Part shown: positions 12,537 to 64,000 of the stretch, one piece after another | How the letters are laid out: the number at the start of each line of letters is the position of its first letter | Numbering within the stretch: the stretch's first letter is position 1 | DNA from: a virus | Lineage: Duplodnaviria > Heunggongvirae > Uroviricota > Caudoviricetes | Reading direction: 5' to 3' (one strand) | Length of the DNA: 64,000 nt | Virus record (IMG/VR): IMGVR_UViG_3300028364_000020 | Location: 41,510-105,509 of that record | Notes under the pieces: generated by a model | Database searches by the model: none | What the model was told of the DNA's origin: nothing | The model's input: only the letters and a program-made list of their open reading frames with translations | Made by a program: the position numbers and the translations under genes

Positions 12537-12557
12537 AACATAAAAAAAATAAGTATA

Positions 12558-39066: not shown

Positions 39067-39687
39067 ATGAAATTAAGTAAAATATTACCTAACCACCCAG
39101 ACTATTGTCAAGACTTTAATTTTATTGCTGGTGTTGATGAATCGGGTAGAGGTTGCGGTGCTGGTCCAATAGTTACTGCTGCTGTTATTTTACCTAAAAA
39201 TTTTGAATCAAATTTACTAAGAGATTCCAAAAAATTAAACGATAAACAAAGACAAGAAGCTTATGATTTAATAATTAAAAATTGTATAAGTTTTTCTTGT
39301 ACTGCTAGTTCTGTTGTGACAATTAACAATCATGGGATAGATAAAGCAATCTTCATTAGTTTTAATAAATCATTAAATGAATTACACATAAAACCAGACC
39401 ATGTTTTAGTTGATGGAAACCGATGGGATGATGAAGGAAAAATTAAATTTGTTAATATTGTTTCCTTAGTAGTTAAGGGTGACGATAGCTATTCATGTAT
39501 AGCGGCAGCTTCTATAATCGCTAAAGTAAAACGTGATGAATATATGATTACATTATCTAAACAATTTACAGAATATAGATGGGATAAAAATAAAGGATAT
39601 CTAACAGCAGAACATATAACAGCTATTAGTAAGATTGGAGTTAATAAATACCACAGAAAAAAATTCGTTAGAAATTTCGTTAAATAA
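39067..39687 (+). CDS. rnhB: ribonuclease HII
   Basis: The GVDESGRGCGAGPIV motif is present (catalytic D-E-S-G-R-G). A downstream DSK motif is present, and the length is typical. Confidence 0.85.
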   Translation: MKLSKILPNHPDYCQDFNFIAGVDESGRGCGAGPIVTAAVILPKNFESNLLRDSKKLNDKQRQEAYDLIIKNCISFSCTASSVVTINNHGIDKAIFISFNKSLNELHIKPDHVLVDGNRWDDEGKIKFVNIVSLVVKGDDSYSCIAAASIIAKVKRDEYMITLSKQFTEYRWDKNKGYLTAEHITAISKIGVNKYHRKKFVRNFVK

Positions 39688-39744: not shown

Positions 39745-41175
39745 ATGAGTACATTATTATCTGCTATGCAAACAAAGGATAAACTTACCTCTAACGGTAT
39801 GGTAACTAATTCTACATCATTAAACCATTGTGTTGATTTATTTTTTAATTTTGGTTCAATGAGAGGTAAGGATAAAAATAGGTTGATTAACTTGTTTGTA
39901 AAAGCCTATGATGAAGACCCTTTAACCGCTATGCGTTTATTATTTTGGGTTAGAGACGTTAGAAGCGGTGCTGGTGAGCGTCAGATATTTAAGGATATTA
40001 TGGTTTATTTGGCTTTGAATCGCACTAACGTTATGGGTAAAAACTTAAGTTTAGTTAGTGAATTTGGTAGATGGGATGATTTATTACCTCTATTTGGAAC
40101 ACCATTACAACTAAACGCTTTGACCTTAATTGAAGAAGCTTTAATCAATAAAGATTCTCTTTGTTCAAAATGGATGCCAAGACCAAATTCTAATGTATTG
40201 ATTAAAAGAACTCAAGCAAATACGTTAAGAAATCATTTACGTTTATCACCTAAAGAATATCGTAAAATGTTAGCTGAAAATTCAAACACAGTAGAACAAT
40301 TAATGTGTGGTAAAGAATTTGATAAAATAGAGTATTCTAAATTACCATCTAAAGCGATGAGTGATTTAATGAAAACTTTCTATAGAAACGATTATGTTCG
40401 TTTTAAAAATTACTTGGAAAGTGTTAATAAAGGGGAAAGTAAAATAAATGCTGGTGCGTTATACCCATATGATGTAATAAAAAACCTTAAACAAGGTAAT
40501 TTTATTGGTGCTAATTCACAATGGAATGCTTTACCTAACTATATGGAAGGTTCGTTAGAAAGATTATTACCAATCGTAGATGTTTCTGGGTCTATGTCTT
40601 GTTCAGCTGGTGGTAGTGATTCTATAAGTTGTATGGATGTCGCTATTTCACTAGGTTTATATATTTCTGAAAGAAACATAGGTGTGTTTAAAGATTCTTT
40701 CATCACATTTTCTAGTTCACCAACACTACAAGTCCTTAAAGGGTCTTTACTAGAGCGTCATAACCAATTAAAGTTAAGTGATTGGGGTATGAACACAAAT
40801 ATCGAAGCTACATTTAACTTAATATTAGAAAAAGCTATTGAGGGTAATGTACCAGAGAGTGAAATGCCAACTATGATTATTATTTTATCAGATATGGAAT
40901 TTGACTATTGTAGTTCTAATAATAACGACACAGCTTTAGATATGATAAACTCTAACTTTGAAAAAGCTGGGTATAAGACACCTAAAATTTCTTTTTGGGA
41001 TTTAAATTCATCAAATTCAAATTCTCCAGTTAAATTTGACGAAAAAGGAACATGTTTAGTTTCAGGTTTTTCCACTTCTATTTTAAAGAGTTTATTATCT
41101 GGTCAATCTATGACACCATTATCTATGATGATGTCCGTAATTGGAGAAGAAAGATATTCAAAAGTTTCGATATAA
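39745..41175 (+). CDS. vWA-domain protein with a MIDAS motif, N-terminal region possibly TROVE/Ro-like
   Basis: The IVDVSGSMS motif matches the DxSxS MIDAS site. The N-terminal region has LFWVRDVRSGAGERQ. The domain order resembles Ro60/DUF2828-type proteins, but the TROVE assignment is uncertain. Confidence 0.5.
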   Translation: MSTLLSAMQTKDKLTSNGMVTNSTSLNHCVDLFFNFGSMRGKDKNRLINLFVKAYDEDPLTAMRLLFWVRDVRSGAGERQIFKDIMVYLALNRTNVMGKNLSLVSEFGRWDDLLPLFGTPLQLNALTLIEEALINKDSLCSKWMPRPNSNVLIKRTQANTLRNHLRLSPKEYRKMLAENSNTVEQLMCGKEFDKIEYSKLPSKAMSDLMKTFYRNDYVRFKNYLESVNKGESKINAGALYPYDVIKNLKQGNFIGANSQWNALPNYMEGSLERLLPIVDVSGSMSCSAGGSDSISCMDVAISLGLYISERNIGVFKDSFITFSSSPTLQVLKGSLLERHNQLKLSDWGMNTNIEATFNLILEKAIEGNVPESEMPTMIIILSDMEFDYCSSNNNDTALDMINSNFEKAGYKTPKISFWDLNSSNSNSPVKFDEKGTCLVSGFSTSILKSLLSGQSMTPLSMMMSVIGEERYSKVSI

Positions 41176-42692: not shown

Positions 42693-43739
42693 ATGACAAA
42701 TAAAGATTATTATGAAGTACTAGAGGTAACAAAACAATCAAATAGTGCTGAAATAAAAAAAGCTTATCGAAAAAAAGCCATTGAATACCATCCAGATAAA
42801 AACCCAGATGTAAAAGAAGCCGAAGAAAACTTTAAAATTATTGCTGAAGCCTATGAAGTGCTAAGTAATAAGGATAAAAAAGCTTTATATGACCAGATTG
42901 GACATAAACAATATAAAGCCAATGGTGGAAGTAAAAATCAAAGTCAGGGGTTTAATCAATCTATGCGTGATAGTTTTAATAATTTTTTTAATAGAAAAAA
43001 AATTAGGGTGGGGTCCAATTTAAGTATTGCTATTACTTTAACTTTAGAAGAGATATTTTCTGGGGTTAATAAAACCTACACTTACAAGCGAGAAACATCT
43101 TGCACAGATTGTGGAGGACATGGAGGTAGTGACGCATACGACTGTCCTGAATGTGATGGTACTGGTATAGTTAATAAAGTTTATCATACTCCAATGGGTT
43201 ATATACAACAAGAACAAACTTGTAACTCATGTAATGGAACTGGAATTAAAACTAAAGTTTCTTGTAAAACTTGTAATTCAACAGGTTTAGTCACTACAGA
43301 AGAAACTGTTGAAATAACAATCCCTAGTGGTGTTATGAATGGTATGGTGTTGGTCAATGAAGGTAAAGGTAATGCGATAAAGTCTGGTGGGTATGGGGAT
43401 TTACATATTAAAATTTTTGAAAAACCCCATGAATATTATACTAGATTAGGTAAAGACTTAAAATTAGCACTTAAACTAGATTATCATCAATTAGTTTTTG
43501 GTGATAAAGTGGAAATAAAAACAATTGAAGAGACTAAAATTAGAATTAATATCCCAGAGGGTAGTGATGTGGGTTCAAATCTGAAAATCCCTTTTAAAGG
43601 TATAACACAATATGGTAAACAAGGACGTGGTGACGTTATTATAACACTAAGCGTGAACATACCAAAAAACATAAATCAAGAGCTTAAAACGGCTGTTAAT
43701 GCGTTAAAAGAAATTTTTGAAAAGACTACGATAGAATAA
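42693..43739 (+). CDS. dnaJ: DnaJ-like co-chaperone (J domain plus four CxxCxGxG zinc-finger repeats plus a C-terminal domain)
   Basis: The J domain carries the HPD motif (DYYEVLEV...[15 protein letters not shown]). The four repeats are [25 protein letters not shown] and CKTCNSTG. Confidence 0.85.
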
Positions 43740-44657: not shown

Positions 44658-45371
44658 ATGGTAGATTCAAGTATGTATAATGAATTCAAAGATTATGCTA
44701 GTAAACACATGGGTATTAGTAGTATGCAATTATATTATTGGGAACGATTACAAGATAGCCTTTACACACACACTACTGTTAGTAACAGTTTAACTCCAAT
44801 GATTTTGGAAGAAAGACAATTAAATGTTACCCAGATAGATGTTTTCTCAAGAATGATGATGGATAGAATTTTATGGTTGTGTGGTCCAGTAAATGATAGG
44901 ATGTCAACAGTTGTTCAAGCACAATTAATGTACTTAGATACAATAGACCAAACTGACATCACTTTACACATAGATAGTCCAGGAGGTAGCGTAAAATCAG
45001 GTCTTGGAATTGTAGACGTGATGGATTACGTCAGTTCTGATGTTATGACAATAAACACAGGTATGGCCGCAAGCATGGGAGCTATTCTATTAGGTGCTGG
45101 AACCAAGGGTAAAAGACTTATGTTACCAAACAGTAGAGTAATGATTCACCAAGTTTCTGCTGGTGCTCAAGGTACTATGGCTGATATTGATATTTCTATT
45201 GCGGAGGGGAGAAAATATAACACTAAACTATTCAATATGTTGAGTGACTATACTGGAAAAACAGCAAAAAAGATTATGAAAGATGCGGACCGTGATATGT
45301 GGCTTGATGCTGAAGAAGCTAAGGGTTATGGTATTATTGATTCAATAATAACAAAAAAAATAAAAAAATAA
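44658..45371 (+). CDS. clpP: ATP-dependent Clp protease proteolytic subunit
   Basis: The catalytic Ser sits in a GMAASMGA context. The His is in MIHQ. Full length and ClpP-like throughout. Confidence 0.85.
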   Translation: MVDSSMYNEFKDYASKHMGISSMQLYYWERLQDSLYTHTTVSNSLTPMILEERQLNVTQIDVFSRMMMDRILWLCGPVNDRMSTVVQAQLMYLDTIDQTDITLHIDSPGGSVKSGLGIVDVMDYVSSDVMTINTGMAASMGAILLGAGTKGKRLMLPNSRVMIHQVSAGAQGTMADIDISIAEGRKYNTKLFNMLSDYTGKTAKKIMKDADRDMWLDAEEAKGYGIIDSIITKKIKK

Positions 45372-45489: not shown

Positions 45490-45852
45490 GGGGTATACAT
45501 GGCATTGACTGGATATAGGACATGGATTGTAAGCACGTAGTGTTAAATTTGGAAGCACTTAAAATCTACTATTAAACAATTGAATTGACAACGTTTTCAA
45601 CGTATCAGAAAATTTCCTTAACGAGGCTACATGTAGCTTTGCGGGAGAGGTAGCAGTAGCCTAACATACAGCAAATGATAGTAGCCTATCGAACAGAATA
45701 AAAATAGTAGTAAACTACTGGTGGAAACAAATTACCACGGCAAAAAAATATTGTAGAGGTTTGTTAGAATTACAACTTAATAAAAACTAACTAAACGTGA
45801 AGAAAGCTTTTCGGCTGTAGACAAGAAGAGGGTTCGAATCCCTCATACTCCT
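45490..45852 (+). ncRNA. ssrA: tmRNA-like gene (ssrA-like)
   Basis: The 5' end GGGGTAT..GGCATTGAC resembles the tmRNA 5' consensus. The 3' end has a canonical T-arm (GAGGGTTCGAATCCCTC) followed by ATACTCC. That 3' strand pairs 7/7 with the 5' GGGGTAT, with one G-U. The length of 363 nt is right. A candidate tag frame ends GEVAVA-stop at 45662. Confidence 0.45.
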
Positions 45853-46389: not shown

Positions 46390-46858
46390 TTAAAGTGAAA
46401 AAAAATACCTAAAAAGATGGTTTCAGCAAAACCTAAAAAAAAACAGAGAAAAAAATTTAATACTCAGTAGAAATACTAAATGTGTTAAGAGAGCGTTGGT
46501 ACCGTTTCCACATGAATAAAAAACGAAGTCTACTTTCTGAAATAATTTGATATACTCTGCATCGGGATGATGTGGTTTAATAAAAAATTAAGACTTTAAA
46601 TGGGATAATCCGCTGGGATGAAAAACACAAAAAATCATCTTGGGGTAAATACATTGGTAAAAGAGTTTTTCCAGCAAAAATAAAAAAAACTTTAAATTTT
46701 AAAAAATAAACTCTGACCAAAATGCACAAGTGGGTAGGCCCATACTTGAAAAAGTGACTGTTTCGAAACAGTCTTGTGTACTAAATTGCGATAAATTGTA
46801 AAGGTTGCATGATAGTCTCATAAGCTATACGGGGTGGTTCGAGTCCACAATTCGCTAC
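46390..46858 (+). ncRNA. unassigned structured RNA candidate with a tRNA-like T-arm at its 3' end
   Basis: A non-coding gap of about 590 nt. It is preceded by an AGTACCTTTG promoter motif at 46366. Internal palindromes are present, including gactgtttcgaaacagtc. It ends in GGTGGTTCGAGTCCACA followed directly by a terminator at 46885. Confidence 0.3.
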
Positions 46859-47484: not shown

Positions 47485-47800
47485 CTACCCACCCACGCCA
47501 AAGGCGATGGGGTGGGCTTCAAGGGTCAACGCTCCAACTAATGTTGGCAACTTACCTTGATTTTTTCTGTCAGTTCCTGACAAAATATTTATTAATGCAA
47601 AATTCTTAATATTTATGGCTGCATTTACATCTCTATTTAACAAAGTCCCACATCTATTACAAGTCCATTCACGGTCTTTTAGGGTTAGTTCTTTGTTGAT
47701 TTTACCGCAACAAGAACAGGTTTTTGATGATGGTTCAAATGTTCCAATCTTCAATATGTTCTTACCTTGCCATTTTGCTTTATAGTCAGAAATAATGAAA
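47485..47800 (-). pseudogene. tnpB: C-terminal remnant of a TnpB (OrfB) gene with a GC-rich structured 3' region
   Basis: The remnant carries a zinc ribbon (CSCCGKIN...CNRCG) and a RuvC-III motif (DVNAAINI). The N-terminal two-thirds of the protein are missing. The 3' 80 nt (47481-47560) are about 60% GC and hairpin-rich. Confidence 0.6.
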
Positions 47801-51404: not shown

Positions 51405-51492
51405 GGAGAGCATCTGGTCGGATGAAGAGCTTGTTTTGAAAACAAGTAAGTCGGGTAATACTGGCTTGAGGGTTCGAATCCCTCGCTCTCTT
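51405..51492 (+). tRNA. tRNA-Ser (anticodon TGA), class II with a long variable arm
   Basis: The acceptor pairs GGAGAGC with GCTCTCT (G1-U72). The anticodon arm is cttgt-tttgaaa-acaag (U33, anticodon TGA, A37). The variable arm is about 20 nt. The T-arm is GAGGGTTCGAATCCCTC. Confidence 0.6.
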
Positions 51493-51528
51493 CAATAAAA
51501 TCATTAATATATTTTATTAAATTAATAT

Positions 51529-51598
51529 ACATCGCTGGTGAAATGTTATCATTTTAATGGCCAAAATTAAAGTTCTGAGTTCGATTCTTGGTTGATGT
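51529..51598 (+). tRNA. tRNA-like sequence (irregular, possible pseudo-tRNA)
   Basis: The T-loop is TTCGATT. The acceptor-like pairing is acatcgc with ttgatgt (6/7). A candidate anticodon loop ggccaaa lacks U33. Confidence 0.25.
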
Positions 51599-51696
51599 GC
51601 AAAAAGATTAAAAAGTTTTTAAATGGTTGAAATTACCATACTTGATACGGTAAAGTCCGATAACTTAGTTAATCTATATATGGTGATTGTAGTCCG

Positions 51697-51770
51697 TAAT
51701 GGTAGCGGGGTTGGTTGTGAGCCAATTGTCAGGAATGACCTTGCGGGTTCGAGTCCCGTTTTTCACCAAC
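51697..51770 (+). tRNA. tRNA-like sequence with a long variable arm (anticodon loop ttgtgag, possibly GTG), irregular acceptor
   Basis: The T-arm is GCGGGTTCGAGTCCCGT. The D-loop cgtaatggtag is Leu/Tyr-like. A candidate anticodon stem-loop is gttgg-ttgtgag-ccaat. The acceptor pairing has two U-U mismatches. Confidence 0.3.
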
Positions 51771-51804
51771 TTTCGATGTTAACTCACCCCCACTTGGTGA
51801 AAGT

Positions 51805-51859
51805 TGGAAACAGATAATGCTGGCTAAGTAGTTAATAAACGTTCATTGATGTATTGGTT
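51805..51859 (+). repeat. conserved ~55-nt post-tRNA element, copy 1 (tggaaacag...gctggcta...ttaataaa...ttcattgat..attggtt)
   Basis: It is near-identical to 52314..52371. It is preceded by an extended hairpin at 51763-51803. Confidence 0.6.
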
Positions 51860-51957
51860 ATAATATTTAAATACTTTTGAGATGTAGATGGTTTAAAATA
51901 ATTTTGGTTTGATGTCTTAATTACTATAAAGAAATACACGATGAAGAGAATAATGGG

Positions 51958-52037
51958 TAGTACGCAGACCATCCTGATAAGATGGATAACTTGTATCGGT
52001 GTTGAAAAAGATGGGTTCGACTCCCTCCTACCCAACA
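51958..52037 (+). tRNA. tRNA-like sequence (candidate anticodon GAT, irregular D and T arms)
   Basis: The acceptor pairs TGGGTAG with CTACCCA perfectly. A clean anticodon arm ccatc-ctgataa-gatgg would give GAT. The other arms are non-canonical. Confidence 0.3.
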
Positions 52038-52098
52038 AAGCATGATGGTTTTGTATTTTGGGTTCGAGGGCCAATATACCTACTAAATTAAAATAAAT

Positions 52099-52171
52099 AC
52101 GGGATAGCATAATGGTATGCACCAAGACTCCAAATCTTCGGAAGGATAGAGTTCGTTTCTCTAATCTCGTG
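52099..52171 (+). tRNA. tRNA-Trp (anticodon CCA)
   Basis: The acceptor pairs ACGGGAT with ATCTCGT (one G-U). The D-arm is cata-atgg-tatg. The anticodon loop is ctccaaa (U33, CCA, A37). The T-arm is tagag-ttcgttt-ctcta. Confidence 0.5.
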
Positions 52172-52205
52172 CTAATAAATTGAAACAACAATTTAAATAA
52201 ATAAT

Positions 52206-52276
52206 TCTTCTATGGTGAAATGGTATCACGTTTGATTGTTAATCAATTATTTCCAGTTCGAGTCTGGATGGGAGAG
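52206..52276 (+). tRNA. tRNA-Asn (anticodon GTT)
   Basis: The acceptor pairs TCTTCTA with TGGGAGA (two G-U). The D-arm is gtga-aatggta-tcac. The anticodon loop is ttgttaa (U33, GTT, A37). The T-arm is tccag-ttcgagt-ctgga. Confidence 0.55.
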
Positions 52277-52313
52277 GGTCGTCAAAATTAATCTACTTCC
52301 ACGAAGTGACGAC

Positions 52314-52371
52314 TGGAAACAGGTAAAGCTGGCTAGACGATTAATAAAAATAGTTCATTGATAGATTGGTT
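52314..52371 (+). repeat. conserved ~55-nt post-tRNA element, copy 2
   Basis: It is near-identical to 51805..51859. It is preceded by a perfect hairpin gtcgtca...tgacgac at 52278-52313, immediately after tRNA-Asn. Confidence 0.6.
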
Positions 52372-52380
52372 ACATGGCGT

Positions 52381-52445
52381 AGCTTATTGGAAAAGATTCA
52401 TCACTCATAAGGATGAACAAATGTGTTCGACTCACATATACGCTA
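52381..52445 (+). tRNA. tRNA-like sequence (candidate anticodon CAT, reduced D-arm)
   Basis: The acceptor pairs agcttat with atacgct (6/7). The T-arm is atgtg-ttcgact-cacat. The anticodon loop is ctcataa (U33, CAT, A37) with an A-G closing pair. Only 65 nt. Confidence 0.3.
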
Positions 52446-52493
52446 CTTTTATTTTTTTTTTATGTTTAATACATTTATAAATAAAATAAACTT

Positions 52494-52566
52494 GGGGATA
52501 TAGTTTAAATGAATAAAATTCTGGTCTACGGAATCAGTGATTTGGGTTTGAATCCCAATAACCCTA
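52494..52566 (+). tRNA. tRNA-like sequence (anticodon ambiguous, possibly TCT)
   Basis: The T-arm is ttggg-tttgaat-cccaa. The acceptor pairs ggggata with taaccct, with one mismatch. The anticodon stem cannot be assigned cleanly. Confidence 0.3.
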
Positions 52567-52572
52567 CAAATT

Positions 52573-52645
52573 GGCTCTATAATGTAATTGGATAACATAT
52601 ATCTCTTCTAAAGATATATTCTAGGTTCGAATCCTAGTGGGGTCA
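52573..52645 (+). tRNA. tRNA-Arg (anticodon TCT)
   Basis: The acceptor pairs GGCTCTA with TGGGGTC (three G-U). The D-arm is atgt-aattggata-acat. The anticodon arm is tatct-cttctaa-agata (U33, TCT, A37). The T-arm is CTAGGTTCGAATCCTAG. Confidence 0.6.
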
Positions 52646-52709
52646 CAAAATAAAAAAAAATATTTATTAAAATTAATCACTAAATACTTTTTTTTATGAA
52701 AGATTACTT

Positions 52710-52718
52710 GTACCTTTG
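52710..52718 (+). promoter_or_regulatory. Bacteroidetes-type -7 promoter motif GTACCTTTG
   Basis: The consensus TAnnTTTG. It sits upstream of the tRNA-Ser(GCT) region. Confidence 0.4.
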
Positions 52719-52816
52719 TACAAGCAAAAAAAGAAAGCCTAATATCTTAGTTGCTCAGAGCATCTAATAGGTAGAAAAGTTTTTAGTCATTGAAATATTA
52801 GTTTATAATAAAACAT

Positions 52817-52898
52817 AGTGAGGTGCTAGAATGGTAATAGAAAATTCTGCTAAAGTTTGGTCGGAAACGGCTTATGGGTTCGAATCCCATTCTCACTA
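52817..52898 (+). tRNA. tRNA-Ser (anticodon GCT), class II
   Basis: The acceptor pairs AGTGAGG with TCTCACT (one G-U). The anticodon arm is aaatt-ctgctaa-agttt (U33, GCT, A37). The long variable arm is gtcg-gaaa-cggc. The T-arm is ATGGGTTCGAATCCCAT. Confidence 0.6.
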
Positions 52899-52976
52899 CT
52901 AAGGTAGATTTAAATAAAACGTTAAAATAAATAAAAAAATCATTTTTTTTTTTATTGATTATCAAAAAAAAAGTAA

Positions 52977-54369: not shown

Positions 54370-54651
54370 ATGGAAGTAATTAGCAATGGTAATGGCTATG
54401 GTAATGGCTATGGTTCTGGTGATGGTTATGGTAATGGTAATGGTTCTGGTAATGGTACTGGTTATGGTTTTGGTAATGGTTATGGTAATGGTACTGGTTC
54501 TGATTATGATTATGGTACTGGTGATGGTTATGGTTATGGTAATGGTTATGGTGATGGTTATGGTTCTAGTTTTGGTGATGGTTCTTTTTGGGGTGATGGT
54601 TCTTCTTGGGGTTTGGGTAGTGGTTCTGGTGATGGTAATGGTGGTGGATAA
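54370..54651 (+). CDS. Gly/Asn/Tyr-repeat low-complexity small protein (93 aa), paralogue 1
   Basis: It starts MEVISNG and continues with (G-N/Y/S/D-G) repeats and aromatic residues (Y, F, W). Confidence 0.45.
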   Translation: MEVISNGNGYGNGYGSGDGYGNGNGSGNGTGYGFGNGYGNGTGSDYDYGTGDGYGYGNGYGDGYGSSFGDGSFWGDGSSWGLGSGSGDGNGGG

Positions 54652-54661
54652 AATAAAGTAT

Positions 54662-54823
54662 ATGGAAGTAATTAGCAATGGTTCTGGTAATGGTTCTGGT
54701 AATGGTTCTGGAAATGGTAACGGTTTTGGTTCTGGTACTGGAACTTATTATGGTAATGGTTCTGGTAATGGTTATGGTAATGGTACGGGTAATGGTGGTG
54801 GACATGGTGATGGTAATGGATAA
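54662..54823 (+). CDS. Gly/Asn/Tyr-repeat small protein (53 aa), paralogue 2
   Basis: Same conserved 5' leader and same MEVISNG start, followed by GSGNG repeats. Confidence 0.45.
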   Translation: MEVISNGSGNGSGNGSGNGNGFGSGTGTYYGNGSGNGYGNGTGNGGGHGDGNG

Positions 54824-54835
54824 AATAAATAGGTA

Positions 54836-54892
54836 TGGAAGTAATTAGCAAGGGTGGTGGTAATTATGACTATAGGATTATAACTAGATAAT
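54836..54892 (+). CDS. truncated third copy (MEVISKGGGNYDYRIITR)
   Basis: The same leader nucleotide sequence recurs with a short Gly-rich ORF. Confidence 0.25.
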
Positions 54893-54930: not shown

Positions 54931-55962
54931 ATGATTAATATTATAAAAAATACACAGTCAGCAAAATACTTTGGTTCTACATACGGTCAAGATGTTGAAC
55001 CAACTGGTACCTATGTTATTGAAAAAGATAATGATTCAATAACTAAACACCCTTGGATAGAAGGTAAAGCGGATATTAAAAACCCTTTAGAAATAATAGT
55101 TAATGAAGATACATTAATATCATACAAATATGACCTCGCTAAAAAGTTTAAGCGTAAGGGTAAAAAATTAACTGAAAAATTAATGACCATTGGTTATGAT
55201 GCCATTATAACCAAATATGAAAATGGTGATAGTGGCGAAATAATACTTTTCCCAAATTGTAATTTTATGTTAGGAATTAATGAAAACAAAAAAAAAATAA
55301 AATCTCTACTTAGAGAAGATTTTAGTTCAGAACCATATGAAATATTAGAAACACTTATGGTTGAAGATTACCCAAACAGTTTTGATATGGAATATTTCAA
55401 AACACTTGTAAAATTCACTGAAAGGATTAAATACTGTGAGGAAAACCTAAAAAGAATCTCTTCTGGTTCCGCTAGGATTGTTTATATGATTGATAATGAA
55501 AAAGTTTTAAAACTAGCTAAAAATAAAAAAGGTTTAGCACAAAATGAAACAGAAATACAATGGGGTAACGATGGTTATTTCGGAAGCATATTAGCTAAAA
55601 CTTTTAATTATGATGACAATAATTTATGGGTCGAAATGGAATTAGCTAAAAAAGTTAATAAAAATACATTTTTAACCCTTGCTGGATGTAAAATCGATGA
55701 TATGTATAATTATTTAGATAATGTTTACAATGTAGCAAATGGTGGTAGAAAACTGCATTCTCAATCTCCAGAAATAATTGAAATGTTAAACGAAAACCAT
55801 TTTGTTGATTTGATTAGAGATTTTATGATGAATATTGACGTTAGACCTGGAGATTTTGGTAGATTAAATAGTTATGGTTTAGTTCAAAGAAATGGTCAAG
55901 ACGACATTGTCTTAATAGATTTTGGATTAACAAATTCTATTTATGATACATATTATTCTTAA
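54931..55962 (+). CDS. protein-kinase-like fold protein
   Basis: It has a Gly-rich loop plus beta3-Lys context (SSGSARIVYMIDNEKVLKLAK). A catalytic-loop-like DVRPGDFGRLN is present. A DFG motif (IVLIDFGLT) is present. No nucleotidyltransferase KxDG motif. Confidence 0.4.
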   Translation: MINIIKNTQSAKYFGSTYGQDVEPTGTYVIEKDNDSITKHPWIEGKADIKNPLEIIVNEDTLISYKYDLAKKFKRKGKKLTEKLMTIGYDAIITKYENGDSGEIILFPNCNFMLGINENKKKIKSLLREDFSSEPYEILETLMVEDYPNSFDMEYFKTLVKFTERIKYCEENLKRISSGSARIVYMIDNEKVLKLAKNKKGLAQNETEIQWGNDGYFGSILAKTFNYDDNNLWVEMELAKKVNKNTFLTLAGCKIDDMYNYLDNVYNVANGGRKLHSQSPEIIEMLNENHFVDLIRDFMMNIDVRPGDFGRLNSYGLVQRNGQDDIVLIDFGLTNSIYDTYYS

Positions 55963-56006: not shown

Positions 56007-56924
56007 ATGAAAGAAATAAACAAATTAGGTAAATTAGTTACTAGACCAAATCAAGAATTAATTATAATTCGTGGCATACCAGGAGCTGGTAAATCAACAA
56101 AAGCTAAAGAGCTAGTCGGCTCAAACGGTAAAATTCACTCAACAGATTCAATTATTGAAGCCACTGGAGATTACAGAGGTTTTTTTTCATCTATGGTGGA
56201 AACAAAAGATTTTTCACCATTATCAAATGCACATTCCTTAAATGTTTTAAATGCAATTGAATCAATTAATCAAGGGTTTTCCCCAGTAATACTTGATAAT
56301 ACTAACATTAAACAAAACGAACCTAAAAAAATGGTTGAAAAAGCCTTAGGAATGGGGCTATCTGATTCTAATATAAAAATAGTTGATATTGGAACAAATG
56401 GCTTATCAGCTAATCAACTATTTGAAAGAAATACACATGGGGTTCCATTAGCAAAAATTAAAGCTATGATTGATAGTCACAAAGGTCAGGGTGTGCTTAC
56501 TTTAGATAGTATTTTATCTTCAAAAGACCTTTATAGTAATTCGGATATATTATATTCAGAAGTTGTGTTGGATGATTTATCAAAAAATAACTTATTATCA
56601 GCGGTTAAAGATTTTATTCCAGATGGGTGGGTAATTTTTGCTCATCACATGACAATTGCATATGGTAAAGATATACCTAAAAAAGAAGATATTGGTTTAG
56701 AAGTATCATTAAATGTTACTGATATTGGTTCAACTGACATGGCTTTAGCTGTTAAGGTTTATGGTTATGAGTCAACAAATGATGTCGCACACATAACTAT
56801 AGCAGTAAATCCAAATGGTGGTAGACCAGTGATGAGTAACAATATAACTGAATGGGAACAGATTAAAACCCTTAAAGTAAAAGGTACAGTAAATGAAAGT
56901 TCTATGAAAACCAATCCCAAGTAA
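56007..56924 (+). CDS. RNA end-healing enzyme: P-loop polynucleotide kinase fused to a 2H phosphoesterase (2',3'-cyclic phosphodiesterase)
   Basis: The N-terminal Walker A is IIIRGIPGAGKSTKA. The C-terminal half has two H-x-T-x motifs (AHHMTIAY and AHITIAV), which define the 2H/LigT/CPDase superfamily. Confidence 0.65.
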   Translation: MKEINKLGKLVTRPNQELIIIRGIPGAGKSTKAKELVGSNGKIHSTDSIIEATGDYRGFFSSMVETKDFSPLSNAHSLNVLNAIESINQGFSPVILDNTNIKQNEPKKMVEKALGMGLSDSNIKIVDIGTNGLSANQLFERNTHGVPLAKIKAMIDSHKGQGVLTLDSILSSKDLYSNSDILYSEVVLDDLSKNNLLSAVKDFIPDGWVIFAHHMTIAYGKDIPKKEDIGLEVSLNVTDIGSTDMALAVKVYGYESTNDVAHITIAVNPNGGRPVMSNNITEWEQIKTLKVKGTVNESSMKTNPK

Positions 56925-57252: not shown

Positions 57253-57828
57253 ATGGTACAAAGATACATTAAATTATCAGAATACGCAAGTAAAAAATCA
57301 ATTACTTACACAACAGCTTGGACACACTTTAAAAAGGGGTTAATTAAGAATGCTTTTAAAGATGAATCTGGACACGTACTTATTCCTTTAACTAATTTAA
57401 TTAACTATAATGATATTGTTATTTACTCCAGAGTTTCATCTAATGAAATGAAAGAAAACTTAATTAGACAAGAAGAAAGATTATTAGCTTACGCTAATAA
57501 AAATGATTATAATATACTTAAATCAGTTAAAGAAATTGGTTCTGGAATGAACGATAATAGACCTAAATTAATTAATTTATTAAACGATAACACATGGAAT
57601 GTCTTACTAATCGAAAATAAAGATAGACTAACTAGATTTGGTTTTAATTATATAAAAACATTGTTATTATTACAAAATAAAAAGATAATAATTGTTAACG
57701 AAAATGAAAATGATAACCATTCATTAATGGAAGATTTAATCTCTATAATATATTCATTCTCTGCGAGAATGTATGGGTTAAGAAGAAAAAAAAATAAAAA
57801 AGATATAATTAATTTTATAGAATCATAA
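57253..57828 (+). mobile_element. tnpA: IS607-family TnpA serine recombinase
   Basis: It has an N-terminal MerR-like HTH. The resolvase catalytic region (VIYSRVSSNEMKENLIRQEER) contains the nucleophile Ser. Confidence 0.7.
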
Positions 57829-58994
57829 TGATTAGAACCTCTAAACATATTATATCAAATACTAATCAAGGGAAGCTTGCTTCCCTTGACCAACTATTTA
57901 TTGATTACAAACATGATTTAGAAATATATGTTAATTATATCATAGAAGGTATATTACCCCTTAAACCTAATTTATCTAGTAAATTACTTCCTACAGAAGT
58001 AATAAAACATTCTAAATATAAAAGAGAAATATATAAGCAAGCTAGTTCTATTATAAGGAGTCAATTAGATAAAAGTAAAAAGAAAAGATATTCATCATAT
58101 AAAAAAATATATACATATATGATGAAGAATCATCCTGATTCTTTATTCTGTAAAACTAAATTTTCTGACCTATCATTAAATAATATATTAAAAACTAAAT
58201 ATTTCACTAAACCTAACCTAAATAATATTAGTATTAATCTAACAAATGAATTTTTTAACATACAAAATGGGAACCATTTTGATAACTTTGTTAATCTTAA
58301 ATTACCTTATTTTAATGAAAAGGGCACTCGTGCCCTACAAATAAATATCCCATTTAATCATCATAAACATTCGTTATCATTTAAACATAATACGTTTAAA
58401 TTAAGAAATAATATACAAATTAAGAAGGTAAACGGTAATTATTATATTGCATTAATTTGGGAAAAAGAGATTGATATTAAAACCAATGGCAAAGCCATTG
58501 GAATTGATATGGGTTATAAAAAATTAATTGTTACATCTGATAATCAGTTTATTAATGGTGATTTAAGTGATATATATTCTAAAATAAGTAGATGTAAACA
58601 AGGTAGTAATGGTTTTAAACGAAGTTTAAATCATAGAGATAATGAAATAAATAGGCTGTGTAATTTAATTAACATCGAAGATGTTAATAATATAATAATA
58701 GAAGATTTAGTATCGGTTAAAACTGGTAAAAAATATTTTACAAATAAAATACAAAGATGGTCTTACGCCAAGACCATTGATAAAATAAATAGAATATGTG
58801 AGGATAACGGTATTATGCTGGTGAAGGTTTCACCAGCATATACCTCACAAACATGTTCTAGTTGCGGTCATGTAGATAAGAAGTCTCGCCAAGGCGAGAA
58901 CTTCAAATGTACAAGTTGTGAATATGAAATAGATGCAGATTATAATGCAAGTATTAATATTTATGATAGAGGAATTTACAGTTTCTCTAACTAA
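57828..58994 (+). mobile_element. tnpB: TnpB (OrfB) RNA-guided nuclease of the IS607-type element
   Basis: The C-terminal zinc ribbon is CSSCGHVDKKSRQGENFKCTSC. The RuvC-III motif is DADYNASINI. It is translationally coupled to tnpA through an ATGA overlap. Confidence 0.8.
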
Positions 58995-59221
58995 AAAAAA
59001 CTAAATTTATATATTTTTATATGAAATTAGTAACTGTTATTTATCTTATAAAAAATATTACCCAGAAATACAAAGTAGAACAGGTTATGATACTTGGGTT
59101 GATACAAGCGGTTTCTGGAAGATTGTAGGGATAACAATTTCGTGGCCAATTTTCGTACCACTTGCGTTAATGTGGAGATTATTAGATTATTTTTTTAACA
59201 AATTAACAAAAAAAGATTAAC

Positions 59222-60037
59222 ATGAAGAACATTTTAGGGTTATTGGGTGTATTGACAATATTGTCATTAGGAAGTTGTACAACAGTCGATTCAGGACATA
59301 AAGGAATTGAGGTTAGTTGGGGTGGAGAGACAAACATGAAAGAGATTTATCCAGAAGGGATGTCAGGTGGTTTACATTGGGTGTGGGATGACATGGTTGA
59401 GTATGACGTTAGGGAACACACAATCGTAAAGGTTTTCGAGTTCAATGATAAAAATGATATGGTTACTAAAGTTCAACTAGCTTTAGACTATAACTTAAAT
59501 CCAGAGCAGTTGCAACTTTTACATACGAAAATAAATGATGTCGCAATTAAAATTGAGACTTCTTTATCATCTGCTGCAAAGGAAGTAGTACCACAATATT
59601 CAGCAACAGATTTAAATAGAAACCAGAGGGCTGTAGCAGAAAAAGCGTTAAGTAAAATATTAGAACAAGAGTTACCAGAATTTTACGTTCAATTCAAGCG
59701 TGTAAGAATCACTGATGTTGACATCCCATTAGCTGTTTCTAAATTAGCCACACAAACGGCAGTTCAAATAGGTAAGAATGAGTTAGCGTCAAAGAAAGAA
59801 GAAGAACAAAAGAATTTAGCTTCAGCTAGAATTGCTAAATCAAAAGGAGATTTTGAGTCCGCTCAATATGATGCAAAGACTAAAGACATTTTATCTCAAC
59901 CTAAAATGCTAGAACTACAACGTGTAGAGAATGAAAGGATTATAGCAGAAGGTTTCAAAGCCCATGGAAAATCTATTTATGGTGAGAATAATTATTTTGG
60001 AGCGGGAGCACCAGTTTTGTTAAAAAGCTTAAAATAA
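59222..60037 (+). CDS. SPFH/band-7 domain lipoprotein
   Basis: A lipoprotein signal is present (LTILSLGSC). A prohibitin-like core is followed by an E/K/A-rich coiled coil. Confidence 0.6.
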   Translation: MKNILGLLGVLTILSLGSCTTVDSGHKGIEVSWGGETNMKEIYPEGMSGGLHWVWDDMVEYDVREHTIVKVFEFNDKNDMVTKVQLALDYNLNPEQLQLLHTKINDVAIKIETSLSSAAKEVVPQYSATDLNRNQRAVAEKALSKILEQELPEFYVQFKRVRITDVDIPLAVSKLATQTAVQIGKNELASKKEEEQKNLASARIAKSKGDFESAQYDAKTKDILSQPKMLELQRVENERIIAEGFKAHGKSIYGENNYFGAGAPVLLKSLK

Positions 60038-60697
60038 GAAAATAAGAAACTATGTGTATGTAGCAAATATTACACATAGTTTCGAATCTTAATCTAGTAG
60101 GTTGCTCAACAACAGAACGAAGTCCCTAAAGTAAATAATTTTTTAATAAAACAAATATTATGTCAAAACAAACTAGCGGAAACGCAAATGCATTCCAAAG
60201 AGATTATTTGGAAGCCAATTTAAAAGGTACTAAATTCAAAGGTAGTGAAGTAACTTCAGTGAGTAATAAATACATTCACACTAAAGAAGCTTCACATCTA
60301 AAAGCAGGAAAAACTGTAAGTTTTACACCTAAAGAAGGAACAGAAAGAATGTTAAGAAGTGATTCATCTGGGGATACGGAAGGAGATAGGCTTTAAAATA
60401 AACAGGTTAAACATTTAATACCTTTGTAGAAATGTGATTAAGAAAGGATGCAACAGAGATGTTAAGTACAAATTCGCTAAAACTACATAAAGATACTAGC
60501 AGTAATGTTAGACGTATTGTCACCTTGAGAAAGTGATGCCGAAAATAGTGAACATAGTAACCACTACAATACGAATGAGTTCTCGGCAAGTGGTAGAACT
60601 TCTACCACGTGACCCAAACAGATTATTAAGAAAGAATTGAAACTTTAGAAACTTTCTTTCAATATAATGCTGTGGGTGCTAAATAAATTAAATAACA

Positions 60698-61126
60698 ATG
60701 GAAAATGAATTTTTACCTTATGAACAATCATTAGATTTAAAAAAATTAGATTTTAATGAGCCTTGTTTTGGGTATTATGATGGAAACTATAATTGGCAAT
60801 GTATGTATAACGGAAAACCTGAAAAGTTTTCTGAAAGGCGAATGGGTGTTTCTAATTCAGCATGGGTTGGTTGGGTTTCAGCACCACTTTATCAACAAGC
60901 TTTTAGATTTTTTAGAGAAAAGTATGAATTACTAAATCACATAACAGCACATCTTAATCCCTTCGGTGAAGATAATGCTTTAGAAGAAAGTTATGGTTAT
61001 CGTATTATAGTTAACAAAGATGGTTGGAAATGTGAACTTTTGGAAAAACATTCATTATATGATACTTACGAAGAAGCACAAATACAATGTCTTAAAAAAT
61101 TAATAGAAATAGTAAAAAAAGTTTAA
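60698..61126 (+). CDS. hypothetical protein
   Basis: 142-aa ORF. Confidence 0.35.
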   Translation: MENEFLPYEQSLDLKKLDFNEPCFGYYDGNYNWQCMYNGKPEKFSERRMGVSNSAWVGWVSAPLYQQAFRFFREKYELLNHITAHLNPFGEDNALEESYGYRIIVNKDGWKCELLEKHSLYDTYEEAQIQCLKKLIEIVKKV

Positions 61127-61151
61127 GGTTAGCAGTTTATTCACAATTAAA

Positions 61152-61234
61152 TAGGGAGAAATAGCTCAGTTGAATAGAGCATCAGTTCGTTAGGGGACAG
61201 AATGTATCGAGGGTTTGAACCCCTCTTCTTCCAC
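61152..61234 (+). tRNA. tRNA-like or pseudo-tRNA
   Basis: It has a canonical D-arm TAGCTCAGTTGAATAGAGC and a T-arm GAGGGTTTGAACCCCTC. The acceptor pairing is gggagaa with ttcttcc. No anticodon stem can be formed. Confidence 0.3.
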
Positions 61235-61709
61235 GAATCAACAATACGAATCATTGTAGTATCTACTTTGGAGGGCAAACCTCATTAAAAAATGGATTGT
61301 AGTTTGCGATTGAATTTCAAAAAGACCAAATGCTTTAACAGTATCAAGATTGAGAATAGAAATAAATTCTATTTAGATACCTCAACGTTCTGTATAAAAG
61401 TGATTGGAGAGAGTGTATTTTTAACTATGAGCAAAATTTTTTAACTCTTATTTTTTATTTTCGGTGAAAAAATTTAAAAACAAACTAATGACAACAAAAC
61501 AAGGTAAGGATAGTTATTCAGAAGAAGATATAAGAAAGGCTGTAATTTTTTGACAAAGTGTTGAGCTAACTTTTGTAACAGAAGAAGGGAAAGAAATCTT
61601 GACTAATGAGTTCATAGAGAAGTTAAAACAAGAACCCGCTTTTTGCCAAACACTTGTTATGTGAGGTTGCCGAAAAAACACATACCAAACTTTAAATTAA
61701 ATACAGATT

Positions 61710-62093
61710 ATGAAAGTACAAAACCAAGATTCAGTTCAAGACCAAGGTGGCAATATCTCAAAACCATTGTTAGCAAATCGTATTTTACGCTTTCGTGTTT
61801 GGGATAAAATTTCAAAAGAGATGTATCAATGGTCGCAAATTGCATCAATATCACTTGTCGATTTTGAACTTGAACATTATACTTTAATGCAATTCACAGG
61901 ATTAAAAGACAAAAACGGAATTGATATTTACGAAGGAGATAAAATAAAATATAAAAATTACAATGGCTATTCTAAAATAGTTTTTGAAAATGGGTCTTTT
62001 GGTTATTATGGAATTTCTTGTTTTATAACTCTTTTAGACACAAATATAAGCTACATAGAAGTAATCGGTAACGTCTTTCAGGATTCTGAATAA
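61710..62093 (+). CDS. YopX-like phage protein
   Basis: The motif FTGLKDKNGIDIYEGDKIKY matches the conserved YopX core. Confidence 0.55.
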   Translation: MKVQNQDSVQDQGGNISKPLLANRILRFRVWDKISKEMYQWSQIASISLVDFELEHYTLMQFTGLKDKNGIDIYEGDKIKYKNYNGYSKIVFENGSFGYYGISCFITLLDTNISYIEVIGNVFQDSE

Positions 62094-62146
62094 TATGTTT
62101 GCTAACTTCCTGTGGCTTTGTCTTGTTGCCGAAAAAATAAGACCAA

Positions 62147-62470
62147 ATGTTTAAATTTAACACTATGAAACCAAGTACAAAAAAATCTTTAAATGATGCC
62201 GAATGTGGCAATAAGTCAAAACCGCTGTTAGGTGCAGTTATTTCTAACGAGATAACTTCAATTGATAATAGAATAAAATCTTGTATTATTGAAAATCCTG
62301 ATGACGAAAGTAATGAGTATTACGTGAAGATTTGGTTTGCTTATAAAATGGATTGTGGAAATCCTCATCCTGACGGCAGACAAGAATTTTTAACAGAAAC
62401 AAAACAACAGTTACTTTACGAAATAAAAGATTTTATGATGTCCGATAAAAATGGATGGTGTATTTTATAA
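62147..62470 (+). CDS. hypothetical protein
   Basis: 107-aa ORF. Confidence 0.35.
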   Translation: MFKFNTMKPSTKKSLNDAECGNKSKPLLGAVISNEITSIDNRIKSCIIENPDDESNEYYVKIWFAYKMDCGNPHPDGRQEFLTETKQQLLYEIKDFMMSDKNGWCIL

Positions 62471-62839
62471 TTGCACCTAACGGAATGCAGCTACCCGAAG
62501 GAGGGGAATACGAAGAACAAATTTTGAATTAAACACAAATGTATAACCGAAGCACAAAACTCCATATAACCACTGAAGACCCTCTTTTGGGTAGGTGCTG
62601 TTATAAGCCGTTTTTCTTCACAAATTTTAAATAAGATGGATAAAGATTATTTTGGAAACGTATGGATTAAAGCCGATAAAGATGTTCGGGAATATCCAAT
62701 TGGAACAAAATTCAAAGCATTAATGGGAGGTCATTGGATAAAAGTCGAAAGAGGTTTTAAATGGTGTAATGGTTCAACGTTTCCGAATGTAGGAGGTGAT
62801 TGGACTGGCGAGGTGTGTCTGCCTTAAAATGGCTTATAA

Positions 62840-62960
62840 CTAGTAGATATATGCATAAACTTGCGTTTTTAACAAATAAAAAATAAAATTATGCGGACAA
62901 ACTAAATATCAATTAACCAACAAGCCCGTAATAGCTCAAAACTAGTGTTATATGATGGCT
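62840..62960 (+). repeat. ~120-nt intergenic repeat cassette, copy 1 (terminator hairpin plus conserved leader ending aaaattATG)
   Basis: It is near-identical to 63883..64000 and partially to 63561..63617. It contains the acgcataaacttgcgttttt hairpin. Confidence 0.7.
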
Positions 62961-62989
62961 TTTTATTTACTAACAAAAAAATAAACATT

Positions 62990-63076
62990 ATGAAAAAACA
63001 AAAAACACAAATTGAAAAAACACTTGATTTATTAGGAACAGCATCAATAATAGTTTTCTTTACGTCAGTTGCGTGA
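62990..63076 (+). CDS. small hydrophobic-tail peptide (28 aa) downstream of the repeat cassette
   Basis: The product is MKKQKTQIEKTLDLLGTASIIVFFTSVA. It is below the ORF-track cut-off. Confidence 0.25.
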   Translation: MKKQKTQIEKTLDLLGTASIIVFFTSVA

Positions 63077-63115
63077 ATTAAACACTAATATTAACAAAAA
63101 TAAAACAAACTTAAA

Positions 63116-63553
63116 ATGAGCGAAAATATTTCAGATACAAACCAAGCCGAGCAATTGCGTGAAAATGCTGTTAGCGGTTCGGTCTTGTGTCACCCAAAAG
63201 GTTCTGCTAAAAAAGTATTTAATGAGTTTTGGAAAGAAGCAAAAAAAGATACTTGTGATAGAAAAACACTTGCGTCAATTTCTTTCGATGCTGGACATTC
63301 ATTAAGACACCAAGAATATGAGAAAGCACTTTGGTGGTATAATTTGCCATTATTAAAAAAGAAACAAGTATTTCAAAACCGTTTTTTTGATGATAAATTT
63401 GATATGAATAAAATCCATAAAGAAACAATTACAATATTATATGATTTGCATCTCTTACCAAAAGAAAGTAAAGAAGAGATTGCTTTAAAAAGAGCAGAAA
63501 CAGCTAAAATTATAAAAGATTTTAAAGATAGTGGTCGAACGATATGTATTTAG
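63116..63553 (+). CDS. hypothetical protein
   Basis: 145-aa ORF. Confidence 0.35.
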   Translation: MSENISDTNQAEQLRENAVSGSVLCHPKGSAKKVFNEFWKEAKKDTCDRKTLASISFDAGHSLRHQEYEKALWWYNLPLLKKKQVFQNRFFDDKFDMNKIHKETITILYDLHLLPKESKEEIALKRAETAKIIKDFKDSGRTICI

Positions 63554-63560
63554 ACTGACC

Positions 63561-63617
63561 GCTAACTAGTAGATATACGCAGGTTTATGCGTTTTTAACA
63601 AATAAAAAATAAAATTA
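63561..63617 (+). repeat. intergenic repeat cassette, copy 2 (variant hairpin)
   Basis: The sequence ctaactagtagatatacgcaggtttatgcgtttttaacaaataaaaaataaaattATG is the same leader driving a different ORF. Confidence 0.6.
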
Positions 63618-63882
63618 TGAATTTACAAGATTTACACGAAAAGACAATAAAATGGGGAGAAGATAGAAATTTCTACAATCCCGAACATTATAGCGAGCAA
63701 TATGAAATCAGAAATAACAAATAGGAAAATAGAAATAAGAAAATCTTGGTGGTATGGAATAACACCTTTTTGTTTATTCAAATACTCAAGAGATAAAATT
63801 ACATATACAGATGCAAGAGAAACAAACTATAATTTTATGATTGGTTGGTTTCAATTACGAGTGTCTGTCGTAAATAACGCCT

Positions 63883-64000
63883 AACTAGTAGATATACGCA
63901 TAAACTTGCGTTTTTAACAAATAAAAAATAAAATTATGCGGACAAACTAAATATCAATTAACCAACAAGCCCGTAATAGCTCAAAACTAGTGTTATATGA
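63883..64000 (+). repeat. intergenic repeat cassette, copy 3 (runs off the window end)
   Basis: It is identical to copy 1 over about 118 nt. Confidence 0.7.

Follow-up and report, generated by a model that had tools for sequence, protein, structure and literature searches.

A phage kinase–cyclic phosphodiesterase protein predicted to heal RNA ends for sealing by a T4 Rnl1-family ligase

We analysed a 64,000-nucleotide stretch of DNA (the window; positions 41,510 to 105,509 of IMG/VR record IMGVR_UViG_3300028364_000020) from a virus of the Caudoviricetes, focusing on a gene for a 305-residue protein that we call the kinase-CPD gene (CPD, cyclic phosphodiesterase). Its source is an uncultured large phage, and the window is AT-rich (29% GC). 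The protein almost certainly consists of an N-terminal domain of the polynucleotide-kinase type and a C-terminal domain of the 2H superfamily. It probably acts in the healing of RNA ends, coupled to sealing by an RNA ligase of the T4 Rnl1 family. An earlier note, made from the window sequence alone, had described a healing enzyme in the style of the eukaryal tRNA ligase Trl1 that lacks a ligase domain, and had considered its sealing partner unknown and possibly novel. The analysis supports the first part of this interpretation and contradicts the second.

Translation of the open reading frame (ORF) gives the P-loop GIPGAGKST (aa 23–31) and the motifs HHMTIAY (aa 213–219) and HITIAV (aa 262–267), as the earlier note had read them. 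A database search returned more than 560 homologues, most of them 297–320 aa long and 59–66% identical to the query; the longest of their metagenomic contigs measures 330 kb, and precomputed PF13671 and PF08302 annotations are attached to many of these proteins. In an alignment of 22 homologues (~60% identity), K29/S30/T31, H44-S-T-D47, D97-N-T-N100, R141, N142, H144, H214-M-T216, H262 and T264 are invariant, so the motifs are under selection and are not chance occurrences. Cultured relatives of the gene were not found among GenBank phages: a DNA search of 50,697 GenBank phage records gave no match, and the GenBank phage proteins include no full-length homologue, the sole match (31%) covering the N-terminal half and coming from one uncultured 595-kb phage. 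No NCBIfam model matches the protein.

An AlphaFold2 model built from the 22-sequence alignment (mean predicted local distance difference test score, pLDDT, of 85) comprises two domains, and the linker between them, at residues 176–179, is of low confidence. The top full-length Foldseek match in the PDB is the crystal structure of the Candida albicans Trl1 kinase-CPD (6u05), which aligns over both domains, followed by the Clostridium thermocellum Pnkp kinase domain, the CNPase catalytic domain, mammalian PNKP and T4 Pnk. Because the best full-length fold match is a Trl1 kinase-CPD structure, the description of the protein as a Trl1-style healing enzyme holds; the motifs agree with it, and the 305-residue protein contains no ligase domain.

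The N-terminal domain matches Pfam AAA_33 (PF13671) over aa 18–118 (E=2.6e-7). Among the PHROGs families, phrog_505 ('polynucleotide kinase') matches at 8.7e-8 over aa 16–164 only, and phrog_2071 ('ATPase') scores higher. Foldseek ranks polynucleotide kinases first for this domain (the C. thermocellum Pnk domain 4gp6, E=8e-5; 3zvn; T4 Pnk 1ly1; 4xrp), with adenylate kinases close behind. In the kinase domain of Trl1 (KIN), the general base Asp445 lies 20 residues past Lys425, and the lid loop (RGNNH in Candida) holds an essential Arg/His pair (PMC5728400). The phage domain presents its P-loop (G23-x4-G28-K29-S30), D47, D97-N-T-N and R141-x-x-H144 in the same order as Trl1 KIN and CthPnk, the equivalence of D47 and R141/H144 to the Trl1 residues being one of position and motif, not of superposed coordinates. 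Judged by its sequence, the domain has the P-loop, downstream Asp and basic lid residues of a polynucleotide 5'-OH kinase.

The C-terminal domain has two H-x-T/S motifs, which in the model lie on strands of the central beta sheet of a predicted 2H fold. The earlier note had named two outcomes that would count against this assignment, a C-terminal half that failed to match the 2H superfamily in profile searches and HxT motifs that fell outside a conserved fold; neither occurred. In the Candida CPD, Asn763 stands four residues before His767, Gln678 and Asn763 form a clade-specific pair upstream of the catalytic His residues, and the closest structural neighbour reported is CNPase (PMC7145591). 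Of the phage residues four before each catalytic His, N258 (before H262; conserved in at least 90% of the 22 homologues) fits the PF08302 clade and I210 (before H214) does not. PHROGs has no family for this domain.

We searched a profile of the C-terminal domain against 1.84 billion cluster representatives (clusters at 50% identity) and found 1,803 clusters with the 2H module at E≤1e-3, 997 of them at E≤1e-10. Two HxT/S motifs are kept in 149 of the 150 best representatives, at a median His-His spacing of 50. By size, these 150 divide into 59 stand-alone proteins (≤175 aa), 45 of middle size and 46 giants (>460 aa, up to 2,332 aa), and in the giants the module is mostly C-terminal. A Pfam scan of 82 fusion proteins, 17 of which match PF08302 at E<1e-4, found the head of CCA-adding enzymes and poly(A) polymerases with its RNA-binding domain to be the commonest partner (27/82), followed by tRNA_NucTran2_2 (13/82), the AAA_33 kinase (10/82), a second 2H domain of the LigT/Acb1 type (7/82), HAD_SAK_1, annotated as 'Swiss Army Knife RNA repair' (6/82), ART-PolyVal (4/82) and NUDIX (2/82). 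The module is mobile and keeps RNA-repair company, and its fusion partners argue that it acts on RNA ends, above all those of tRNA, and not on cyclic-nucleotide signals. These data bear on the proposal that the 2H domain is an Acb1-like nuclease directed against the cyclic signals of CBASS, Pycsar or type III CRISPR, with the kinase in an unrelated or regulatory role. Domains of the LigT/Acb1 type do occur among the fusion partners of the module; the kinase-CPD protein itself neither matches the Acb1 profile (PF23474) nor has Acb1 as its closest fold, and we rank this proposal low, as very improbable.

The sealing partner was identified from gene neighbourhoods. Of 79 viral loci retrieved, with contigs as long as 368 kb, 71 have a member of the kinase-CPD family (L014–L084), and in these the neighbouring genes were tallied by tblastn. 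An Rnl1 gene lies downstream in all 64 loci that have at least 3 kb of downstream sequence (median distance 1.6 kb), and Rnl1 is present in 68 of the full 71; in relatives the distance is 0.4–8 kb, and the genetic linkage to Rnl1 is strict. Other neighbours are a DNA ligase (48/71), a CCA-adding enzyme on the upstream side (37/71), HD_4 (30/71), NUDIX (29/71) and, in loci with at least 9 kb of downstream sequence, Rnl2 (33/42). Three loci (L001, L004 and L005) share the order CCA-adding enzyme (~6–7 kb upstream), kinase-CPD gene, small ORF, Rnl1-family ligase (PF09511), and then HD_4, DNA ligase, Rnl2-family ligase (PF09414) and PARP-like ART. In 62 of the 71 loci (L004:11817-12158 and 61 others), an unannotated ORF of 113 aa separates the kinase-CPD gene from Rnl1. 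It matches nothing in Pfam or NCBIfam and gave no tblastn match in the window or in the overlapping contigs L011 and L093; it may serve the repair module as an accessory factor.

Within the window, tblastn with the Rnl1, Rnl2, DNA ligase, HD_4, PARP and NUDIX proteins of the relatives found none of these genes; only the CCA-adding enzyme and the immediate upstream neighbour are conserved with them. The phage genome was followed past the window end by way of L011, which is 99.94% identical to window positions 58759–64000, and L093, which overlaps L011 at 99.98% identity and reaches further downstream. Together they give a full-length Rnl1 gene of 372 aa (L093:9225-10343) whose start lies at window-equivalent position ~73,130. 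A homology search with a 141-aa N-terminal fragment of this ligase found no match, and the full gene was recovered by an exact DNA pattern scan. The protein scores 48 bits against PF09511, matches T4 Rnl1 (2c5u) at E=1e-13 over residues 43–362, has motifs I (KEDG), III, IV and V, and is followed by a DNA ligase gene. In this genome Rnl1 lies ~16 kb downstream of the kinase-CPD gene, with an IS607-type element and other inserted DNA between them. The sealing ligase that the earlier note expected to exist is thus encoded by the phage outside the window, and the partner is of a familiar kind.

RNA cut by a metal-independent ribonuclease ends in a 5'-OH and a 2',3'-cyclic phosphate, and 2H cyclic phosphodiesterases of the clade of Trl1-CPD and CNPase leave a 3'-OH,2'-phosphate end. 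The substrate of the kinase-CPD enzyme would be RNA, most likely tRNA, cut in this way. The P-loop domain would phosphorylate the 5'-OH from a nucleoside triphosphate by means of Lys29/Ser30, with Asp47 as general base and Arg141/His144 in the lid, and the 2H domain would open the cyclic phosphate by means of His214/Thr216 and His262/Thr264, giving, by analogy with CNPase, Trl1-CPD and ThpR, a 3'-OH,2'-phosphate end. Sealing of these ends would fall to the Rnl1-family ligase that the phage itself encodes. The kinase-CPD enzyme, together with the phage tRNAs, CCA-adding enzyme and tmRNA-like RNA, probably serves to reverse attack by host ribonucleases on the translation machinery. We infer the two catalytic activities, the 2'-phosphate regiochemistry, the tRNA substrate and the counter-defence role; a specific role against anticodon nucleases, as suggested in the earlier note, may apply, and we hold it with less confidence than end healing coupled to Rnl1.

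A rival reading gives the enzyme a different main job, the repair of tRNA 3' ends and not of anticodon-loop breaks. Truncated tRNAs ending in a 2',3'-cyclic phosphate would be opened by the 2H domain and rebuilt by the CCA-adding enzyme, and the kinase would be secondary. The CCA-adding/PolyA_pol head is the commonest partner of the small 2H module, with the 13 tRNA_NucTran2_2 fusions in addition; the CCA-adding enzyme of the phage is encoded 6.6 kb upstream, a synteny kept in 37 of the 71 loci; and this 387-aa enzyme matches head and RNA-binding profiles only, with no HD phosphoesterase match. However, fusion to a domain of the polynucleotide-kinase type is only sensible if 5'-OH ends are being prepared for ligation, the linkage to Rnl1 (64/64) is far tighter than that to the CCA-adding enzyme, and a 2'-phosphate on the 3' nucleotide might still block CCA addition. 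We consider 3'-end repair unlikely to be the main job, although it overlaps with end healing coupled to Rnl1 and is compatible with it.

The NUDIX and PARP-like neighbours of some relatives bear on a further proposal, in which the enzyme would act on NAD+/ADP-ribose metabolites. The sequence scanned yielded no Tpt1/KptA, which is the source of Appr>p; the structural neighbours of the kinase are polynucleotide kinases; and neither NUDIX nor PARP was found in the parts of this genome examined, yet the kinase-CPD gene is retained. The linkage to Rnl1 is also far stronger. We give this proposal very little credence and, like the Acb1-like one, rank it low.

End healing coupled to Rnl1 remains the reading that we prefer, and the following observations weigh against it. 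Searches of the PDB by sequence alone, whether started from the protein or from the family profile, gave weak P-loop kinase matches (T4 Pnk matched the whole kinase domain at E=0.017) and no CPD match, so structure prediction was needed. The match of the query to PF08302 falls below the Pfam cutoff of 23 bits, with 20.6 bits for the full protein and 22.8 bits for the domain taken by itself, and spans the second HxT region only; relatives score above the cutoff (28.9 and 33 bits). The 2H domain (~125 aa) is smaller than those of Trl1 and CNPase, with a His-His spacing of 48 as against 85 in Candida Trl1, and because it is so much smaller its substrate and regiochemistry could differ from theirs. 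For T4 Rnl1, the substrates described are 2'-OH,3'-OH ends, and the Trl1-LIG motif is absent (PMC10946435). The ligase domain of Trl1 (Trl1-LIG) needs a 2'-phosphate, a requirement imposed by a His nine residues past the motif III Glu and an RxxR just past motif V (PMC11404444). In the Rnl1 of this phage the triad is missing: the residue nine past the motif III Glu is Val, and motif V is followed by KMKNPAYL. No conserved Trl1-LIG His-Arg-Arg triad is present in an alignment of 59 linked Rnl1 sequences. Finally, the scanned window ORFs and ~15 kb of continuation yielded no Tpt1/KptA, no HD_4 and nothing else that is obviously a 2'-phosphatase; the Pfam scans took in ~48 window ORFs and left out ~10 of at least 100 aa. 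Since Rnl1 has no triad and no Tpt1/KptA or 2'-phosphatase was found, the pathway as drawn has a gap. Over the same sequence there was also no RtcB and no HAD-type Pnkp. Among the Rnl1-, Rnl2-, RtcB- and Tpt1-like genes for which the earlier note had proposed a search, Rnl1 was found, in the continuation, and Rnl2, RtcB and Tpt1/KptA were not found in the parts scanned.

The 2'-phosphate may be tolerated by the ligase, or be handled by a host KptA or by another phage phosphoesterase, or the 2H domain may have a different regiochemistry. For its removal, the linked HD_4 protein, the conserved 113-aa ORF and the neighbours of PARP-like or protein-kinase-like type are candidates. As a tentative proposal that we regard as unlikely, a large clade of uncultured, mostly jumbo-sized phages would use a hybrid repair pathway in which 3' healing is of the yeast type, by a 2H CPD that leaves a 2'-phosphate, and sealing is of the T4 type, by a triad-less Rnl1, with no Tpt1/KptA. 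Such a hybrid may not yet have been seen experimentally. If true, it would need an Rnl1 that tolerates or exploits the 2'-phosphate, a new activity that removes it, or a different regiochemistry of the small 2H domain. A kinase-CPD and Rnl1 gene pair of this kind could also resemble viral raw material for the assembly of the eukaryotic LIG-KIN-CPD tRNA ligase.

The closest known architecture is the healing module of Trl1/AtRNL (6u05), where, as in the phage protein, a P-loop polynucleotide kinase is followed by a 2H cyclic phosphodiesterase. The two share the P-loop, an Asp ~20 residues further on, the lid Arg and His, the dual HxT motifs and the Asn four residues before the second catalytic His, and PF08302 matches occur within the phage family. 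In contrast to Trl1, the protein comes from a phage and not a eukaryote, has no ligase domain on the same polypeptide, has a 2H domain of about half the size, and carries I210 in place of Gln four residues before the first His; its partner ligase is of the T4 Rnl1 type without the 2'-phosphate triad, and Tpt1 was not found in the sequence scanned. The stand-alone polynucleotide kinase (PNK)/CPDase of Branchiostoma floridae and vertebrate CNPase also have the kinase-then-2H architecture, but they are eukaryotic and have larger 2H domains (the phage protein is 18% identical to CNPase), and the partner of the amphioxus enzyme is a Trl1-like ligase, unlike the phage Rnl1.

In textbooks, the response of phages to host anticodon nucleases is that of T4 Pnkp, a kinase with a HAD phosphatase, together with Rnl1. 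Like that pair, the system described here would be a phage-encoded, two-component heal-and-seal system with an Rnl1-family ligase; the kinase domains are homologous (1ly1), and the ligase aligns through the tRNA-specific C-domain of T4 Rnl1. The difference lies in 3' healing, which in T4 is carried out by a HAD (DxDxT) phosphatase that leaves 2'-OH,3'-OH ends (PMC1920235), whereas the phage protein has a 2H domain predicted to leave a 2'-phosphate and a 3'-OH. Its C-terminal half has the 2H fold and no HAD Pfam match, so the HAD DxDxT domain of T4-type Pnkp is absent.

In a library of viral structures the best matches are Trl1-like proteins of giant viruses (the 'RNA ligase' of Marseillevirus LCMAC202, CroV E3T4N1 and the 'tRNA ligase/uridine kinase' of Bodo saltans virus). 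These and a Sylvanvirus protein match over both domains (314–382 aligned columns, E from 4e-11 to 1e-9, identity 14–19%), and the Sylvanvirus protein, at 292 aa, is similar in length to the 305-aa phage protein. The giant-virus proteins differ in that they belong to viruses of eukaryotes and most are ~770 aa long, presumably with an added ligase domain. Proteins of cultured phages in the same library match the kinase half only (polynucleotide kinases) or the 2H half only (Acb1). The 'Swiss Army Knife' RNA-repair proteins contain the same small 2H module, in giants with CCA-adding, HAD_SAK_1 and second 2H domains, whereas in the phage it forms, with a PNK-type kinase, a small protein of two domains. 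Burroughs, Iyer and Aravind have predicted computationally that phage 2H domains, which about one third of medium and jumbo phages possess, cooperate with phage tRNA ligases and/or KptA (PMC9503650, PMC7824862). RNA repair by a phage 2H domain and a ligase is thus already predicted, and the kinase-CPD enzyme is an uncharacterised variant of it; no specific description of a phage kinase-2H fusion was found in the literature searched, which did not cover the survey of Burroughs and Aravind (2016).

Several features of RNA maintenance lie in the window (Table 1). The CCA-adding enzyme, 63% identical to its L004 orthologue and syntenic with those of the relatives, and the tRNA cluster were both as the earlier note had placed them. 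A further tRNA at 61155–61233 (+) is reported by Rfam (36.3 bits) and not by ARAGORN, and Rfam gives a weak tRNA-like signal, below threshold, at 46787–46857 (+; 22.3 bits). The tmRNA-like gene, at 45490–45852 (+), matches the full-length RF00023 model (E=1.8e-13 in a 1.7-kb search), in keeping with the earlier note, at a score of 38.5 bits against a gathering score of 47; it is a divergent gene that ARAGORN missed. Directly upstream of it is a ClpP gene (44658–45371), and a full-length DnaJ gene (42693–43739) is nearby; together the three look like a phage-encoded trans-translation and proteolysis set. The deoxynucleoside monophosphate (dNMP) kinase that the earlier note placed in this island has no supporting Pfam match, and the only classical P-loop ORF found in 35–64 kb is the kinase-CPD gene. 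A 476-aa ORF at 39745–41175 (+) was considered as RtcB and rejected, as it carries DUF2828 and DUF7788. It matches phrog_850 ('RNA-binding protein') at 1e-149, adjoins an RNase HII gene (39067–39687), and is taken to be Ro60/TROVE-like; no Y-RNA-like partner was found by Rfam at E≤0.01 in 36–45.4 kb.

The gene immediately upstream of the kinase-CPD gene encodes a two-module protein. Its C-module (aa ~117–343, ~220 aa) has the motifs ISSGSxRIVY, VLKLAKN, WVEMELA and IDFG, weakly matches the SteC kinase by profile (E=0.004, aligning the G-loop and beta-3 lysine), and in 30 of 63 related loci occurs by itself, upstream of the kinase-CPD gene. The earlier note had found this kinase-fold neighbour not to be an obvious ligase, and it is not a ligase. 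Its N-module occurs in the same upstream slot in other loci, fused to a PARP-like domain with the signature YHG[ST]...GPGIYFT; the related-locus coordinates listed with these modules are L015:8212-8613 and L080:5728-6129. Further upstream, at 54370–54851 (+), are two tandem small ORFs that both start with MEVISNG and continue as a low-complexity peptide rich in Gly, Asn, Tyr and Ser (GNGYGNGYGSGDGYGNG); the DNA is a simple repeat, since its other frames give poly(VM) or poly(IT) strings.

Directly downstream of the kinase-CPD gene, where relatives continue toward Rnl1, is the IS607-type element. Exact-protein look-ups show the same phage in several metagenomes, and the independent assemblies all break inside this element, which is probably multi-copy or variable between strains. 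A TnpB remnant of 89 aa (PF07282) lies at window-equivalent ~47485–47754 (−). Alignment of L011 to the window revealed a direct repeat of ~231 bp (98.7–99% identity) at 62837–63067 and 63882–64000, the second copy running past the window end; the copies flank a 145-aa ORF (63116–63553). At the other end of the window, positions 39–17709 hold ten ORFs of 181–1,334 aa. Those scanned (nine by Pfam, six by PHROGs) gave no matches except a borderline SprB repeat and a weak tail-fibre PHROG; the ORFs presumably encode structural or tail proteins of a phage lineage that has been little sampled, and the SprB repeat may hint at a Bacteroidota host.

Table 1. Positions in the 64,000-nucleotide window of the kinase-CPD gene, its predicted domains and motifs, and other features.
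Feature	Position	Strand	Basis or remark
Kinase-CPD gene, 305 aa	56007..56924	+	ORF and translation; predicted bifunctional RNA end-healing enzyme
P-loop polynucleotide-kinase-like domain, aa ~14–170	56046..56516	+	PF13671, phrog_505, Foldseek
P-loop GIPGAGKST, aa 23–31	56073..56099	+	G23, P25, G28, K29, S30, T31 invariant
Asp47, candidate general base, 18 residues past P-loop lysine	56145..56147	+	Invariant H44-S-T-D47
DNTN motif, aa 97–100, Walker-B-like	56295..56306	+	D97-N-T-N100 invariant
Lid motif R141-N-T-H144	56427..56438	+	R141, N142, H144 invariant
Compact 2H cyclic-phosphodiesterase domain (predicted), aa ~181–299	56547..56903	+	
First HxT, H214-M-T216	56646..56654	+	Invariant; on strand 214–219 of AlphaFold2 model
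Second HxT, H262-I-T264, with N258 four residues before	56790..56798	+	H262, T264 invariant; on strand 262–267
Upstream neighbour, 343 aa, N-module (aa 1–134) and protein-kinase-like C-module	54931..55962	+	phrog_4301
IS607-type element (serine resolvase 57253, TnpB 57828)	57253..58994	+	PF00239, PF07282
CCA-adding tRNA nucleotidyltransferase, 387 aa	49356..50519	+	PF01743 and PF12627; NF009814 1.7e-64
Seven tRNA genes (Ser, His, Trp, Asn, Arg, Arg, Ser)	51405..52899	+	ARAGORN, Rfam

The finding suggests that a widespread group of uncultured large phages swap the phosphatase of Pnkp for a cyclic phosphodiesterase like that of Trl1 and CNPase and retain a T4-type ligase. Should the predicted chemistry hold, a 2'-phosphate would be present on the repaired junction or the healed end, to be tolerated by the ligase or removed by another factor, and the fate of such an end in a T4-type Rnl1 system becomes a testable question. 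Coverage of the 2H module by Pfam, NCBIfam and PHROGs is poor, so that annotation of genomes misses a common component of RNA repair. The kinase-CPD family would be the prokaryotic-virus counterpart of the eukaryotic kinase-CPD healing module and bears on the origin of Trl1 and CNPase.

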